Positions 1 to 44,804 of a stretch of DNA of 64,000 nt are shown here, piece by piece. Source of the DNA: Escherichia phage CMS-2020a; sequence record CP053388.1; one strand, 5' to 3'. The translations under genes and the position numbers were made by a program. The notes below the pieces were generated by a model, which saw nothing but the letters and a program-made list of their open reading frames with translations, was not told where the DNA came from and did no database searches. Numbering within the stretch: the stretch's first letter is position 1; every line of letters begins with the position of its first letter.

Positions 1-214
1 TTACAATCGGCAGATCGTCGACAAAAATAGATCTTGCGCCATTTACCAAGCCGCCAATTACACCTTCCCCAAGAAGATCGAGGATAGCGGCCATTGCACG
101 AGAATTTACGGTATCGTCGGCTTCAACCGGTGTACGGCTAGAGCTTTTGCTGCTTTTTTTACCACCCGCACCTGCAATAAACAGCGGTAACTTTTTCTTC
201 TTGAACTGTTCCAT
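1..214 (-). CDS. Tail tip central fibre protein, lambda gpJ-like (5' end only; gene continues past the window start)
   Basis: Minus-strand ATG at 214 directly downstream of the gpI-like gene; N-terminus MEQFKKKKLPLFIAGAGGKKSSKSS...DLLGEGVIGGLVNG resembles the lambda J N-terminus. Partial, so not in the ORF track. Confidence 0.5.
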   Translation of the reverse strand, partial: MEQFKKKKLPLFIAGAGGKKSSKSSSRTPVEADDTVNSRAMAAILDLLGEGVIGGLVNGARSIFVDDLPIV

Positions 215-2762: not shown

Positions 2763-5700
2763 TTAGTTACGTTGAGTGTTTGGGTTGAGTGATCCGCCAG
2801 GGCGTTTCTCTTGAGCGATAGTCTCAAGCGCGATTGCTTTCATCCGTTGAGCGGCATTGTTCCATATGCTTTCTGTATCGCCGGATTCAGTTGTGCTACC
2901 GTCACTATGGACGTTGATCTCAATTGATACCGGAGAAAGAACATTTCCTCCTCCACTCATACCATCGGTACTGAGCGTTACAGGGATTGTTCGACCATCA
3001 GGCAATGGAACATACGCCTCATTCATATCGCCTTCCCCAAACAACGCCAATTGAGGTGAGTTGGCGATACCGCCTTTCTGGTATGCCCGGAGCGGGATCA
3101 CGCCGTCTTTTCCGAATATGCCACCATTTGCAAACTTCGGAATTGCAGGAATACCATTCGTGCCATCGGCAGCAGAACTGGTCAGATTGTTGAACCCGGA
3201 AGTTGAGCCAGAAGAACCGGACATCAATCCATCGAATCCACCACCAGCCCATACTGAAACCAAACCAGATGCAACTGTCGCGCCGAAATTCAACCACTTA
3301 TTACCAGAGCCGGAAGCATTAGCTCCAAGCATTGCAAACGCGGCAGACAGAGCGCCGGTAACAGAGCTGAGGTTCTGCATCGAGAAGATGGAGTCCTTCA
3401 CTGCTTTTGTCTCAGCATCTTTGGCTTCGGTGCTATCAAATAGCCCCGATACCCAGCTACCAATCGCATTTGTTGCTGTGCCAATTGCGCTGGTGGTCTG
3501 CTGTGTTGTTTGCCCCAATCCAGTTACCGAACTGGACGTCTCCTTCGTGGCTTCTCCTACCGACTTGTCGCCATTAACAGTGTTGCCCATTCGTACACCT
3601 TGATTGGCAACGGCAGAAGCAACTCCAGTGAGCAAATTGCCACTCTGTGAACTACCAGCTGCGGTGGTTCCCATCCCCAACATGTTCATTAGAGGCAGCG
3701 TGATTTGCGACTTCACGACCATATTGGTGATATCTTTCAAAATGGACTGAGATAGGCTGGAGAAGCTCATCTTCCCGTTAATAACGAAATCAGTCAGGAC
3801 ATCAGTTAAGCCACTAAACAAATCAGTCCAGGTGCTTTCGATCTGCTCTGCCAAGTTTTCGTATTCCAGTGCCAACTTCTGCGTCGCAGTCCCCGTCTCT
3901 TTAATAAGCGCGGTATTGCCAGCAGCAATCAGTTGATTGATTTTCTTTGTATAAAGCGCCACAACTTTAGGATCAGACGCCTTATCACGAAGTTCTATCA
4001 ACGCTTTGAGATTGCGGTTGTAGGTGTCTTCGAAATCAGCAACTTTCTCTTCGCGAGACGGCGTATAGCCAGCACTAATAATGGAATCCGCCTCCGGTGC
4101 CCAAGTGGAGATCATCTGCTCAACATTGCGGCGATTAAACATCTCGCGATATTCAGGTGTCGCATTTTTGAGGTCTTCAAGACGTTTTTTCGCCTTGTCG
4201 ATCATCTCTTGAGTGATGAACTCGTTAGGTACCGCATTAGCCAAATCTGTCAGCGATTTCGTTGTATCGCGAAGAGACTGATCAAACGATACCGTAGCCT
4301 TAGAGCTTTCACCCATTTGCCCCATAAGCTGATCAGCTTTGTCCAGAGCCTTCTGGTATCCGGCTGCCAGTTTCTGTTGCGCTGCCTGTTCCTTCTTGGC
4401 CGCACGCTGCGAGGCGTTAGCTGATCGTTGGGCTGCTTTCTCGGCAGCTGCTGCATCCTGTTCACGAGCTTTAGTAAGTGCGGCAATGGCTGCGGCACGC
4501 TCTTCATCGCTCATTTTCTCCAGAGAGCTGGCACTGGATGCTTTCTGCAAATTAAGCTGCGTCTTGAGTTGTTTAGGCCCAATAATCGGCTTACCTTCGA
4601 AGTCCATCATCGGAGTGCCGTCAGGCAAAGTACGCTGATAAGTCGCAGAATCCATCTGGTTTCGCATATATTGCGCCAACGCCTTCTGAGCAGCTTTATC
4701 AGTTGTACCTAACCCAAGAACAGTCCCCTGGTTTGACATTACGCCCTTACCAGTTTTGGCCGCGTTATCTCTCTCGAACTCTGCCTGAGTCAGCTCCTGA
4801 GCAACGGCTTCCAAATGCTCCTGATAACCACGAATACTGCCTTGCAGTTTCTGGATCTGCTCGGTATTTCCATCCTTTTTGGCTTTTTCAAGCTGATCAT
4901 TAAGAGTCGCAATTTGCTTCTCGGTCGCATTCTTACGAGAAGAAAGTGAATCAACCAGTTTTTGCGCAGGCTCCAGATAGCTTTTGTTTACCGTTTCACG
5001 TAACGGTGCCAATAGCTTGTTCTTTTCGTCATCTGAAAGTGAACCGTCATCATTGATTTTCTGGATCTTATCCAGAGCCTCTTGCCGGGCTTTCACGAAT
5101 GTTGCCGCGAAAATCTGGTTTTCCGCTCGAATTTTCTCAATCTGAGATTCGGCAGCCTCTTTAGCCAAACGCTTTGCTACAGCGCCGTCACCAAGAGCTA
5201 TCGTGCCGGTTATCTTTTGATACTCCTCCTGATTTTTTTTCAGGCGTGCTTCGATGTCAGCCTTCGACTCTTTGTGAGTAATAACACCGGCAGAGTTAGA
5301 TACGTAATTAACACCCTCACCAGTTTTTAATGCTCGTTGATCAGCAAGAATCTGCTTTTCGAGCTTTTCTGCGCGGTCGGCCATTTGTGCACGTTTGGCC
5401 GCTGTCATCGCTTCTGGTATTTTCCTAATCTCGTCAACGACCTTTGAAGTTTCGCTGCGGAGCATGGTCATGTACGTGATTAGGCCAGCAACAGCTACAG
5501 TGGCAACTGTAAATGCTGCCCCTATAGGGTTTGCTGCAATGAACGCCGTTAATCCAGCAAAAGCGCCTTTAAGCCCCGTAATCGCCCCACGGATGGCGAA
5601 AATAAGAGAGGGGATCGGAGCCAGCCCCATACGTGCCGCACGATTGAATCGAGTTACTGCTGTAGCGCCGAGGTTAAATGGAGTCTGTATGGCGGTCGCC

Positions 5701-41492: not shown

Positions 41493-43178
41493 TCATTTAA
41501 CGCGTTTGAAAACGTATACGCTGACTGTGATCCCTGTGTCTTCAAACTCGTTGGTAAACGACTTCCCTCTGGCATAAACGTAATTATCCATCGTCATCCA
41601 GTCCAGTATTGGCGCAGTGCCCGGCAATACTGCTACAAGACGCCCGCCGACTTTCAGATGCCCCAGCGCAGCCAGCGTGTGCTCTCTATGACGACCAAGC
41701 GAGTACGGCGGGTTCATAACGATTTTGTCGAACTGATAACCTACGTTGTCCTCAGACCACTTTATGAAGTCGCAGCAAATCGTGTTCGTATACCCTTTTC
41801 CGCGCAGGATATCAGCGAAGAGAGGTGCGATTTCTATGCAGGTAACATCTTCCAGATCGGCGTTGATATAGGCCAGAAGATCCCCACGTCCGGCTTGAGG
41901 CTCCAGCAGCTTCTCACCAGACTTCAATTCAGTGGCTCTGGCAACGTACTCAGCAATCAAGCGTGGGGTAGGGTAGAACTGGTGTGATTTTGTATCCGGT
42001 ATTAATCCGGTAGCCACAATCGTATTTAGCGTATGGCCGATCTCATACGGGAACTGCCAGTGTTTTTTCTCCTGCACGCCGCCAATGAAGCTCAGTGTGC
42101 GCTCAAGCTCTTCCACCTGCGACTTCTGGAGAGCTGAATCAGAGAAGTACCATACGCCTTTGTCTTTGCTCAATCGCCCGTCACGAAGCGCAGTGCGAAC
42201 CGGCACGGAGATCGTCTTCTGGATTAACCCGAACTGCTTTGGTGCCCGTGTTTTTGGCGCAGTTCGGCATGGCGCGGGGATTGCAGCAGGCATACTGTAA
42301 GCCAGCACCTCATTCAACTTCCAGGCCACGTCAGGATGTATTTCAAAGTGAACGTTGCCGTTCTTGAACATCTTCACGCGCATCAGATTTCCATCGACGT
42401 TCATCCAGTCACCGGTCTGGCAGTCGTTTGCTCGATACGCAGCTGATAGCACCTCAGCAGTGCGGTTGATGGTAATAAATTCTTTGTGCGCGAAGAAATG
42501 AAGCAAGACACGCAGATCGTCGATGTAGTCCTCTTTGCGATAGTTCACGCTAACGCTGTCCCGCCAGAAATCAGAAATGCAGTCAGCGATTATCAGACGC
42601 TCGCTGAAACCGTTTGTCTTATTTGTCTTGTGCGCAGGACTCAGCGCCTTAAACAAGCCATACACGCGCTCAGAGAGATATTTGTGCCTGTCATTCAGCA
42701 AATTAAGCATCGTGGGTATGACCGTTTCTGCTTTGAACTCCGGTACACCAACGAACTCTTTAACCTTCATCTGGTAGCCGGTTCTGTCAGTTTTGATGAC
42801 TTCCTGTTTGCCCTCTATAAACTGCTCGCGCCACTCATCTCGACGGGAAGCTGGCATGATCAGCAAAACGTTAGTCATGTCCGTGACCTTCCTCCAGTAC
42901 TCGGCCCAAATATTCTGTTTCACCCATTCCAGATCGACTTTATCCAACCAACCTCGATTTAAACGCGAGCGATCTTCATCTGGTCGATGGTTTAGTCTCA
43001 GCAGGCGATTAATCATGTTGTGGCGTTCGTCGCCATAAACGAAGTCGTGTACCTGATACATGAAGGCGATCTCTTTCTCGCACTCGGCCACAATTTCGTG
43101 GATGACGTTCATTTCCTGCCGATAGTCGATAGCAGTGTTTGAGTTGGCATCGTCGATGATGGAAAGGGCTGTATTCAT
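41493..43178 (-). CDS. Large protein with C-terminal N6-adenine (or N4-cytosine) methyltransferase domain
   Basis: FYPTPRLIAEY, motif I-like LEPQAGRGDLL, then motif IV IVMNPPYS within the last about 180 aa; N-terminal about 380 aa of unknown function. Confidence 0.55.
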   Translation of the reverse strand: MNTALSIIDDANSNTAIDYRQEMNVIHEIVAECEKEIAFMYQVHDFVYGDERHNMINRLLRLNHRPDEDRSRLNRGWLDKVDLEWVKQNIWAEYWRKVTDMTNVLLIMPASRRDEWREQFIEGKQEVIKTDRTGYQMKVKEFVGVPEFKAETVIPTMLNLLNDRHKYLSERVYGLFKALSPAHKTNKTNGFSERLIIADCISDFWRDSVSVNYRKEDYIDDLRVLLHFFAHKEFITINRTAEVLSAAYRANDCQTGDWMNVDGNLMRVKMFKNGNVHFEIHPDVAWKLNEVLAYSMPAAIPAPCRTAPKTRAPKQFGLIQKTISVPVRTALRDGRLSKDKGVWYFSDSALQKSQVEELERTLSFIGGVQEKKHWQFPYEIGHTLNTIVATGLIPDTKSHQFYPTPRLIAEYVARATELKSGEKLLEPQAGRGDLLAYINADLEDVTCIEIAPLFADILRGKGYTNTICCDFIKWSEDNVGYQFDKIVMNPPYSLGRHREHTLAALGHLKVGGRLVAVLPGTAPILDWMTMDNYVYARGKSFTNEFEDTGITVSVYVFKRVK

Positions 43179-43281
43179 AATTGCACCATTAAGAAGTGAT
43201 TTGTTTAATGGTGCAATTATTTCAAAAATGAAAAGGTACTAAATAGAAATAAACAGGCAATCGTTCAAATAAAGGCATTGG

Positions 43282-43953
43282 CTAATCATACTTGGAGGTA
43301 TTTATCACCAGAATTTTGTTTGTATAAATCTTCTTAATATCCCATGTGACATTACCGGAATACCATTGACCGTTATATACTTGGTTTCCAGTTGCACCTG
43401 TCATTGTTACATAGACAGGTCTGTCGTAATCGGTTCGTCTATAGTTATATACCCCAACCATAGCAGGCATTACCGCACATGGATACCCCATATCTATTGT
43501 AAATTGAGGGTCAGAAATAGTGATAAGTTTCGCATCAAGGGGCATCATCTCACCGTGATACACCATTGCGCCTGCGCTGTTATACATGGCAATGCCATAG
43601 CCAGAATGTGGTAACACCATATCAGAAAAAGCATAAACTGTTATTGTTCCGGGGCTACCATTTACCTGATGCAATCTGAGAGCATTGTATCCGTTACTAT
43701 GCTCATGAATAAACATCATGTTCGCCTTATTACTGCTTTTTATGAAGAAAAAGCATGATTTGTTTGATGGGATTGATGTTTGAAAAACAGAACCTTTAGA
43801 TGTAGACATTGTCCCTTTATTAATCAGATTTTGCGGAGTAAATTCTGGACTCATCCACAAACTTCCATCTGATTGAGTAATTGACATCCCGAACATAATT
43901 ATCCCCAGTATGTGTATATGTAAGAACCAAGCCCCGTATATAAATTTGACCAA
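43282..43953 (-). CDS. Beta-rich N/Y/G/T-rich protein, AT-rich gene (possible C-terminal part of a split gene)
   Basis: 223 aa ORF overlapping the 3' end of ORF 43899-44180 in another frame; AT-rich DNA. Confidence 0.4.
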   Translation of the reverse strand: MVKFIYGAWFLHIHILGIIMFGMSITQSDGSLWMSPEFTPQNLINKGTMSTSKGSVFQTSIPSNKSCFFFIKSSNKANMMFIHEHSNGYNALRLHQVNGSPGTITVYAFSDMVLPHSGYGIAMYNSAGAMVYHGEMMPLDAKLITISDPQFTIDMGYPCAVMPAMVGVYNYRRTDYDRPVYVTMTGATGNQVYNGQWYSGNVTWDIKKIYTNKILVINTSKYD

Positions 43954-44180
43954 CTAACCGTATTTCCATTAATAGTAACTGTTGGAACAGGTAAATTAAT
44001 GTAGTTGTCGTTGTTAAGAGGCATCAATGACCACACGGCATGTAGCGATTTACCCGGTGGCGGATTGGAGTACGTCTTAGAGCCTGATGACGCAGTAAAT
44101 CGATCAAGAAAAAAAATAGGAGTAAGGAAGCCAGTAACGTTAATTCCTTTATTGTTGTAAATCCCTGTACCGTATGACAT
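43899..44180 (-). CDS. N/Y/G/T-rich protein, possible N-terminal part of a split or frameshifted gene
   Basis: 93 aa ORF of similar composition overlapping the next ORF. Confidence 0.35.
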   Translation of the reverse strand: MSYGTGIYNNKGINVTGFLTPIFFLDRFTASSGSKTYSNPPPGKSLHAVWSLMPLNNDNYINLPVPTVTINGNTVSWSNLYTGLGSYIYTYWG

Positions 44181-44234
44181 TTTTCACCCTTGTTTTTATC
44201 AACACAATATGGCCGATCATGCGGCCATATCAGA

Positions 44235-44804
44235 TCAATTAGAGCTTTGAAAGACTTTGTGTGGTTGTGTTGCGAGGTTATGTCGATGGCTTAACTCACG
44301 CATCATGTCTTCAAGCCGACTCTTTGTGTCGTCGAGTTGGTCGGCCATTGCTCCCAAAAGCTGACGAACGGCCATCGGATCATCGCTGTTTAGTGATGGC
44401 ATTTTATAACCCGCCTGAGAAGACATAAGATTGAACGCAGACATCAACATCGTTAGAGAGGATTTAAGCCCAGCAATTTCACGATCTTTGCTGGCAATAA
44501 TCGCCTCACTCTTGTTAGTGTCATCAGTTCGTTGAGTCTCGCTCACCATATCCAAAGTCGCCTGCAACTTATCAGCGCGCTCTTTTTCAGCAAGATAATG
44601 AACACCGAAATGATGTGCTAAAGCTACAACCTGAGTTGGCTCTTCAAAGGTGGACTCAAAATTAAGTGCTGTAACCACTCTCTCAAATATGGAAACGTCT
44701 TCTATTCCTCGAAGAATGGCTAACATTTTGACCAGTTCATTAGCATCCATTTCTTCGAATAAGGCGTTTTGTTCATCAGCTATCGCTTTGCATTTCTTGC
44801 ACAT
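44235..44804 (-). CDS. Hypothetical protein
   Basis: 189 aa; motif A at 44823-44837 upstream. Confidence 0.5.
   Translation of the reverse strand: MCKKCKAIADEQNALFEEMDANELVKMLAILRGIEDVSIFERVVTALNFESTFEEPTQVVALAHHFGVHYLAEKERADKLQATLDMVSETQRTDDTNKSEAIIASKDREIAGLKSSLTMLMSAFNLMSSQAGYKMPSLNSDDPMAVRQLLGAMADQLDDTKSRLEDMMRELSHRHNLATQPHKVFQSSN

Follow-up and report, generated by a model that had tools for sequence, protein, structure and literature searches.

Two open reading frames (ORFs) of unusual composition lie on the minus strand at positions 43,282 to 44,180 of a 64,000-nucleotide stretch of Escherichia phage CMS-2020a (sequence record CP053388.1; this whole stretch is referred to here as the window). 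The window belongs to an SSU5/Cyrano-like E. coli phage-plasmid. In the region of the locus it shares 98.8% identity with Escherichia phage Cyrano, an SSU5-like phage-plasmid carried by strain LF82, and 99.5% with some 60 E. coli plasmids of 105–125 kb that are non-mobilizable and of the IncFIB type. In a program-made ORF list the two frames are given as 43899..44180 (93 aa, ATG start) and 43282..43953 (223 aa, TTG start) and overlap by 55 nt in different frames, as was correctly recorded in an earlier note made from the sequence alone. That note had proposed a single protein encoded across the two frames, whether a frameshifted pseudogene, a sequencing error or a recoded gene, and had likened it to receptor-binding or exclusion proteins. 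Analysis of the locus revealed two intact, separate genes with classic translational coupling and under strong purifying selection, which probably encode a split tail-tip receptor-binding protein (RBP) of the phage-plasmid. In the direction of translation, the features of the pair are:

44185–44191, minus strand: ribosome-binding site of ORF1, AAGGGTG, 4–6 nt before the ATG at 44180; kept in the alignment of relatives
43899–44180, minus strand: ORF1, small subunit of 93 aa (MSYGTGIYNNKG...YTYWG), ATG start; present in the ORF list and matching PHROG 557
43897–43953, minus strand: mechanical extension of the 223-aa ORF, from the TTG at 43953 to the codon before the ATG; source of the apparent 55-nt overlap
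43894–43907, minus strand: translational-coupling junction TGG GGA TAA tt ATG, read from the sequence and kept in relatives
43282–43896, minus strand: ORF2, large subunit of 204 aa (MFGMSITQSDGSLWMSPEFTP...NTSKYD), with its true start at the ATG of 43896–43894 (MFGMS...) and not at the TTG of 43953

Across the junction the minus strand reads ...TAC TGG GGA TAA tt ATG TTC GGG ATG TCA..., with the ORF1 stop codon (TAA) at 43901–43899, a 2-nt spacer (TT) at 43898–43897 and then the ORF2 ATG. A Shine-Dalgarno sequence, GGGGA (43906–43902), falls inside the final two codons of ORF1. The TTG of the 223-aa ORF lies 19 codons upstream of the conserved ATG, and the 55-nt overlap is an artefact because the ORF listing takes the first start after a stop. 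In relatives the ORF2 frame is open for 11–27 codons upstream of the ATG with no conserved start there, and the Shiga toxin (Stx) phage has no open extension, while in the ORF1 frame the same 57 positions of the window (43897..43953) encode the conserved ORF1 C-terminus, WSNLYTGLGSYIYTYWG. No sigma-70-like promoter was detected between ORF1 and the 189-aa gene upstream of it, which makes co-transcription of the pair with the genes before it probable.

The ORF1 stop codon and the ORF2 ATG are present at all 11 loci compared. The spacing between them is 2 nt in the window, the plasmid, Cyrano, JenP1 and Bas04, 5 nt in the phage-plasmid PhiR41_1 and the Stx phage, 1 nt in Bas06 and Bas07, 0 nt in Bas05 and −1 nt in SSU5 (TAATG), and since these spacers give all three frame relations, the relation between the two frames is not conserved. 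The ratio of non-synonymous to synonymous substitution rates (dN/dS, Nei-Gojobori method) is 0.06–0.12 for each gene in its own frame (0.08–0.12 for ORF1), with differences concentrated at third codon positions, and against PhiR41_1, where the pair sits at the same position, it is 0.08 and 0.10 for the two genes. Full-length homologues are 93–94 aa for ORF1 and 203–216 aa for ORF2, and a 204-aa protein identical to ORF2 heads a cluster of 679 members.

A single gene broken by a frameshift, or programmed −1 frameshifting giving one protein of about 300 aa, finds some encouragement in the 19 codons of open ORF2 frame that overlap ORF1, in a slippery-like heptamer (A_AAT_TTA) in the ORF1 frame at 43947–43941, and in the existence of single-chain relatives of about 315 aa. 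The heptamer was rejected as a programmed −1 site: it is lost in JenP1 (TCG AAC TTA), no frame relation is fixed, and a shift at this point would replace the highly conserved C-terminus of ORF1 (LYTGLGSYIYTYWG). Fusion within this subfamily was seen in none of the 40 homologue clusters found, and the same sequence recurs in about 150 independent complete genomes. With the stop, Shine-Dalgarno and ATG all conserved and each gene under purifying selection in its own frame, this explanation has next to no chance of being right and is effectively refuted. The three options offered by the earlier note, pseudogene, sequencing error and recoded gene, therefore fall away given the homologue lengths (about 93 and 204 aa), the variable spacing and the dN/dS values, and so does the idea of one protein spread over two frames: each gene has its own start and ribosome-binding site, and every annotated relative carries 282- and 615-nt genes, annotated as two coding sequences, at the locus. 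The two-ORF arrangement is the conserved functional state.

Among 5,426 complete E. coli genomes, 150 (about 3%) carry the pair, and 151 of the 153 copies are on plasmids. The unusual composition reported for the two frames was evident in both proteins, N, S, G, T and Y making up 53% of ORF1 and 40% of ORF2, and both are predicted to be all-beta. The AlphaFold 2 (AF2) model of ORF1 (predicted local distance difference test score, pLDDT, 82) is a beta-sandwich whose structure matches are to generic beta-sandwiches only, and that of ORF2 (pLDDT 80) is all-beta. At the profile level, ORF1 residues 1–93 match positions 1–92 of the 100 in PHROG 557 (E 6e-29), and ORF2 residues 1–204 match positions 3–224 of the 224 in PHROG 425 (E 2e-72). 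No signal peptide, lipobox or transmembrane segment is present in either protein, the N-termini are polar, and the maximum 19-residue Kyte-Doolittle means are 0.94 (ORF1) and 1.10 (ORF2). Sequence searches of PDB chains with both proteins, and with profiles of ORF2 and of the fused family described below, gave no match; neither did NCBIfam or PADLOC, and in a Foldseek search of BFVD the only matches were to phage proteins of 200–330 aa that are uncharacterised. A short motif, (Y/F)G-x-x-(I/M)-(Y/T)-(N/Q)-x-x-G-x-x-(V/W), is present at both N-termini, that of ORF1 and that of ORF2, and again at residues 100–112 of ORF2, and similar motifs are found in DUF6453 proteins at the N-terminus and around residue 215. 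This sharing hints at repeated domains led by a beta-hairpin.

On several 2025–26 records the RefSeq protein WP_000467662.1 is named 'cysteine peptidase family C39 domain-containing protein', which would make ORF2 a peptidase, and ORF2 does have invariant Cys and His residues (C48, H114 and C140). However, no Peptidase_C39 match was found in Pfam up to an E value of 10, nor any in NCBIfam, the all-beta model of ORF2 differs from the papain-like C39 fold, and the fused and FhuA-type relatives (see below) conserve neither C48 nor C140. We consider the peptidase assignment very improbable.

Homologues of ORF2 were found by tblastn in 325 phage records, including Nonagvirus JenP1, JenP2 and BRET (83% identity), short-tailed Stx phages (61%) and many T1-like Drexlerviridae (about 40%), as well as SSU5 and Pectobacterium phages. 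At every locus examined among these homologues, J-like or tail fibre genes stand beside the pair. Leaving phage-plasmids aside, the nearest phage homologues are gp21-gp22 of the three Nonagvirus phages, annotated as 'membrane associated protein' and 'outer membrane protein'; in JenP1 they share 83% (ORF2) and 76% (ORF1) protein identity with the window pair, have an identical junction and, as in the window, no accompanying lipoprotein. Unlike the window pair, the JenP1 pair lies directly after gpJ, on the opposite strand and inside the tail module. In the Stx2a phage WGPS9 (4717–5618) a 61–63% identical pair is found directly after a tail fibre gene and before lom, and about 100 records of short-tailed Stx-converting phages are of this kind. 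Short-tailed Stx-converting phages use BamA as receptor.

In small siphoviruses a hypervariable locus has been proposed to encode the terminal RBP together with cognate exclusion proteins (Maffei et al. 2021, PMC8594841), and receptor specificity has been assigned to this RBP locus (PMC8594841; bioRxiv 10.64898/2026.04.02.716166). The Drexlerviridae phages Bas04, Bas06, JK16, tunus and WaterSpirit are listed as dependent on BtuB (PMC8594841 S5 table; bioRxiv 10.64898/2026.04.02.716166), and all five of these BtuB-dependent phages with receptor data carry an ORF2 homologue of about 40% identity. In Bas04 (FritzSarasin), Bas06 (KarlJaspers) and JK16 the locus is convergent with J and encodes an 89-aa lipoprotein, an ORF1-like protein of 91–92 aa and an ORF2-like protein of 204 aa, the latter two in the same order as in the window. 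The ORF1-like proteins (bas04_0024, bas06_0025) are 50–54% identical to ORF1, and the ORF2-like proteins (bas04_0023, bas06_0024 and that of JK16) are 39–42% identical to ORF2 over 204–205 aligned residues; the junction is also built as in the window, with a stop, a 1–2-nt spacer, an ATG, and a GGGG Shine-Dalgarno within the W-G codons. At an identity above 30% with coverage exceeding 99%, ORF2 falls within the BtuB family as delimited in the preprint (bioRxiv 10.64898/2026.04.02.716166). In JK16 the ORF1-like gene is unannotated and occupies a 280-nt 'gap' (about 3708–3986) between the lipoprotein gene and the 204-aa gene.

The congeneric, FhuA-dependent phages Bas05 and Bas07 encode proteins of 101–103 and 197–223 aa and a 75-aa Cor-like lipoprotein, and SSU5 has a distant pair of this type plus a Cor-like gene after its fibre genes (SSU5_023/024/025). 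These pairs share the small-plus-medium, stop/start-coupled architecture of the window pair but are only about 26–30% identical to it, are accompanied by a Cor-like lipoprotein, and lie on the same strand as J. Profile alignment (hhalign) shows homology of the FhuA-type proteins with ORF1 (96.6%, E 5e-10) and, in ORF2, with residues 1–148 only (99.2%, E 2e-19). Judged from these alignments, the FhuA-type and BtuB-type RBP-locus families are homologous, although the 2026 preprint (bioRxiv 10.64898/2026.04.02.716166) calls them unrelated. The start of SSU5_024 is probably an ATG that overlaps the SSU5_023 stop (TAATG; MYGSKIVRSDGKVWMSPS...), 42 nt upstream of the annotated start (4001–4043).

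An exhaustive search with the ORF2-family profile yielded 114 relatives, 10 of which are proteins of 307–325 aa with an ORF2-like part beginning around residue 95–115. The earlier note had suggested aligning both parts to a single homologue, and when this was done the two proved collinear with the N- and C-terminal parts of proteins of about 315 aa: in this fused family, positions 3–80 correspond to the ORF1 family (hhalign, 94.8%, E 4.8e-8) and positions 101–310 to the ORF2 family (99.5%, E 3e-22). None of the fused-family members tested has a Pfam match. At 80 of 80 IMG/VR loci a J-like tail-tip gene ends within a few bases of the start of the fused gene and on the same strand, and in most of the 10 such junctions inspected the two overlap as TAATG. 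Because it is collinear with fused relatives that adjoin J, the pair can be read as the split form of a protein that canonically lies right after gpJ, and the division into ORF1 and ORF2 is, on these alignments, an old gene split rather than a lesion. The family with the fused-type C-terminus also occurs in split form in Pectobacterium phage Taid (3715–4654), where the start of an unannotated, 94-aa ORF1-like gene overlaps the J stop (ATGA) and the gene runs to about 3999. In the annotation, the Taid 'membrane-associated protein' starts at 3944 (MEHTK...), an upstream in-frame ATG, while the conserved start (MSFGIQIY) at about 3996 overlaps the ORF1-like stop; this start extension is the same artefact as that seen in the window.

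The predicted fold of ORF2 finds its best match, suggestive of a shared fold, in the RBP of phage Oekolampad (Bas18), which has been solved bound to LptDE and has LptD as its receptor (PDB 9rpt; PMC12685063). The Oekolampad RBP (bas18_0025, 321 aa) adjoins J, has a small upstream ORF, and belongs to the Rtp44 family (Pfam DUF6453, PF20051). It is close in size to ORF1 and ORF2 together (297 aa) and has the same genomic role downstream of J, but differs from the window pair in being a single chain with a different type of J tip and LptD as receptor. DUF6453 is the only Pfam family that ORF2 touches (residues 77–138, 15.4 bits, E 0.012; gathering threshold 25 bits). Comparison by hhalign of the Oekolampad RBP alone, or of a 15-sequence DUF6453 profile, with ORF1, ORF2 and the fused families gave nothing significant, the best result being 13.5% (E 0.002) on a 39-residue motif. 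The link to the solved RBP is accordingly one of probable fold similarity only, since homology to DUF6453 at the sequence level is not established.

The strongest argument that the pair is the terminal adhesin comes from the tail tip of Cyrano itself. The tail module of this phage-plasmid comprises the tape measure, M, L, K, I, J (1,575 aa), a P1 S-like fibre and a holin, and no RBP gene follows J. In a sister E. coli phage-plasmid, J is followed 3 nt later by a DUF6453 RBP. The J proteins of Cyrano and its sister are 70% identical over about 1,300 aa and differ in their last 45 or so residues; the last 90 residues of the sister J align end-to-end with the (DUF6453-type) J tip of Bas18, and the Cyrano J tip aligns end-to-end (44–47% identity) with the J tips of phages that carry the split pair or the fused form. 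It is this co-variation of tip and RBP, together with the lack of any other RBP gene, that speaks for the pair despite its position.

If the pair is a split RBP, events during lytic growth may be pictured as follows. ORF1 and ORF2 would be made in fixed proportion through stop/start coupling, would associate with each other and would attach to the J-like central fibre at its C-terminal tip, ORF1 forming the adaptor part of the tail-tip adhesin. ORF2 would bind a host outer-membrane protein as terminal receptor, the lead candidate being the TonB-dependent transporter BtuB, and receptor binding would commit the virion to DNA ejection. Incorporation into the virion, the part of ORF1 as a docking domain and the identity of the receptor are all things that we infer. 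A comparable concept is seen in the T5 protein pb5 (oad), a separately encoded, monomeric RBP of about 640 aa that sits non-covalently on the tip of the central fibre, binds a TonB-dependent transporter, and has a cognate exclusion lipoprotein, Llp. It is a single protein, and no sequence or fold match between pb5 and the window pair was found.

BtuB is the leading guess and falls somewhat short of an even chance. Identity between ORF2 and its counterparts in Bas04 and Bas06 is about 50–60% in the N-terminal and central parts and about 22% over residues 146–195 or so, and the homology to the FhuA type likewise stops near residue 148; receptor specificity probably resides in this segment. The literature searched yielded no receptor data for Cyrano, PhiR41_1, JenP1 or SSU5-like phage-plasmids.

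Several observations weigh against a split RBP or against BtuB as its receptor. In Cyrano, J lies at 17.7–22.4 kb and the pair (CYRAN_88/89) at 81.9–82.8 kb, so that it is about 60 kb from the tail genes, among and oriented with genes for DNA metabolism and accessory functions, which is atypical for a structural gene; this setting, in the accessory region of a temperate phage-plasmid and about 60 kb from gpJ, also sets it apart from the BtuB-type loci. No counterpart of the 89-aa lipoprotein of Bas04, Bas06 and JK16 (LTGC lipobox) is present between 43179 and 44234. With only about 22% identity to BtuB-type proteins over residues 146–195, the receptor may be one other than BtuB. The sub-threshold Pfam match to DUF6453 leaves homology to the solved RBP family unestablished, and for the BtuB- and FhuA-type pairs themselves the RBP role is one suggested by genotype-phenotype correlation in the literature and by AlphaFold 3 (AF3) models. 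The PHROG names are 'outer membrane protein' and 'membrane associated protein, moron', the PHROG category of ORF2 is moron, and close homologues (61%) stand next to lom in short-tailed Stx phages.

The PHROG names and category would suit a lysogenic-conversion or superinfection-exclusion cassette that acts at the host envelope, blocking incoming phages or altering the surface, as would the neighbouring lom or cor genes in other phages and the insertion of an AT-rich cassette away from the tail module, at a site where SSU5 has nothing. Neither protein, however, has a signal peptide, lipobox or hydrophobic segment, and PADLOC gave no matches. In T1-like loci the lipoprotein that fits the exclusion role is a separate one, Cor-like or Rtp45-like (PMC12685063), with no counterpart here, and a tblastn search of the window found neither a Cor-like gene nor a second copy of the pair elsewhere. 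The fused relatives are coupled to gpJ by overlapping stop and start codons in the junctions inspected. Thirteen Cyrano genes are expressed in the lysogen, and the pair is not among them (PMC9928086), a silence that is consistent with a structural role in the lytic cycle. An envelope cassette is thus improbable, and of the earlier suggestion of a receptor-binding or exclusion protein, the receptor-binding half gains support from the homologous RBP loci, the fused relatives after gpJ and the match of the J tip, while the exclusion half is improbable.

The distance from the tail genes could also mean that the cassette is of a genuine RBP type and goes unused as an adhesin here, being perhaps a recently captured passenger that chance, or selection in donor phages, has kept intact, or else a factor for tail-fibre assembly or a host-range module that serves as an alternative on some hosts only. 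Other adhesins do exist, with the long J of Cyrano and its large P1 S-like fibre, and the 76–83% protein identity to the pair of the lytic phage JenP1 suggests horizontal acquisition. Set against this are the dN/dS of about 0.1 between two phage-plasmid lineages that have the pair at the same position, its conservation in about 150 genomes, and a Cyrano J tip of the type that partners such RBPs elsewhere, in a phage-plasmid where no other RBP gene is present. An unused cassette is unlikely, though somewhat less so than an envelope function, and a split tail-tip RBP remains the preferred reading.

The pair sits between the 189-aa hypothetical gene and the gene for a DUF4942 methyltransferase. 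As the earlier note had observed, this is AT-rich DNA, the G+C fraction being 0.36–0.40 over 43200–44200, compared with 0.45–0.53 in the methyltransferase gene and 0.45–0.46 on the other side. The surrounding features of the window are:

2–214, minus strand: opening 71 codons of the gene for the J-like central tail fibre, with 98.6% identity to J of Cyrano; the remaining tail module lies beyond the window
41493–43178, minus strand: DUF4942 and N6-methyltransferase protein of 561 aa (PHROG 6263); counterpart SSU5_095 at the matching SSU5 position
43177–43220, no strand: perfect 16-bp inverted repeat with a 12-nt loop, downstream of ORF2 and overlapping the methyltransferase start codon
44207–44230, no strand: perfect 9-bp inverted repeat (ATATGGCCG n6 CGGCCATAT) between the 189-aa gene and ORF1, bordering the AT-rich cassette on its upstream side
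44235–44804, minus strand: 189-aa hypothetical protein (PHROG 5508), equivalent to SSU5_094 by position and similar size alone

SSU5 has no pair at the position equivalent to this locus. Its match here covers only 43100–43192 of the window and ends inside the 16-bp inverted repeat, so this repeat is taken as the downstream edge of the cassette. The 9-bp inverted repeat is kept in the alignment of plasmid and phage-plasmid relatives and is not found in JenP1. The inverted repeats flanking the cassette may be hairpin terminators, operators or insertion scars.

What has been found is most likely a known class of RBP locus, and its noteworthy aspects are the displaced position in SSU5-like phage-plasmids and the relationship between split and fused forms. 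For annotation, the analysis puts right several names that mislead ('outer membrane protein', 'membrane associated protein' and 'C39 peptidase') and a recurrent error in the choice of start codon. Collinearity with the fused relatives also provides a structural model, in which ORF1 would be the docking domain and ORF2 the receptor domain. Taking this further, and more speculatively than the RBP assignment itself, the small 'accessory' proteins of RBP loci might be no accessories but the N-terminal domain, detached and serving to dock on J, of a single ancient family of RBP folds (BtuB-, FhuA- and fused ~315-aa types, possibly also the DUF6453/LptD type), split at the same boundary in several lineages, and in Cyrano-like phage-plasmids unlinked from the tail module while serving as the sole terminal adhesin. 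We hold this as a tentative idea that is rather more likely wrong than right; if true, exchange of a 1-kb cassette at any place in the genome could alter host range, with the tail genes left untouched.

E. coli commonly harbours SSU5-like phage-plasmids (about 3% of the complete genomes here), which can carry resistance genes, and predicting their host range requires knowledge of the genes that determine their terminal receptor. Should the pair be the adhesin, then RBP genes can lie away from gpJ, where receptor prediction based on the locus would miss them.

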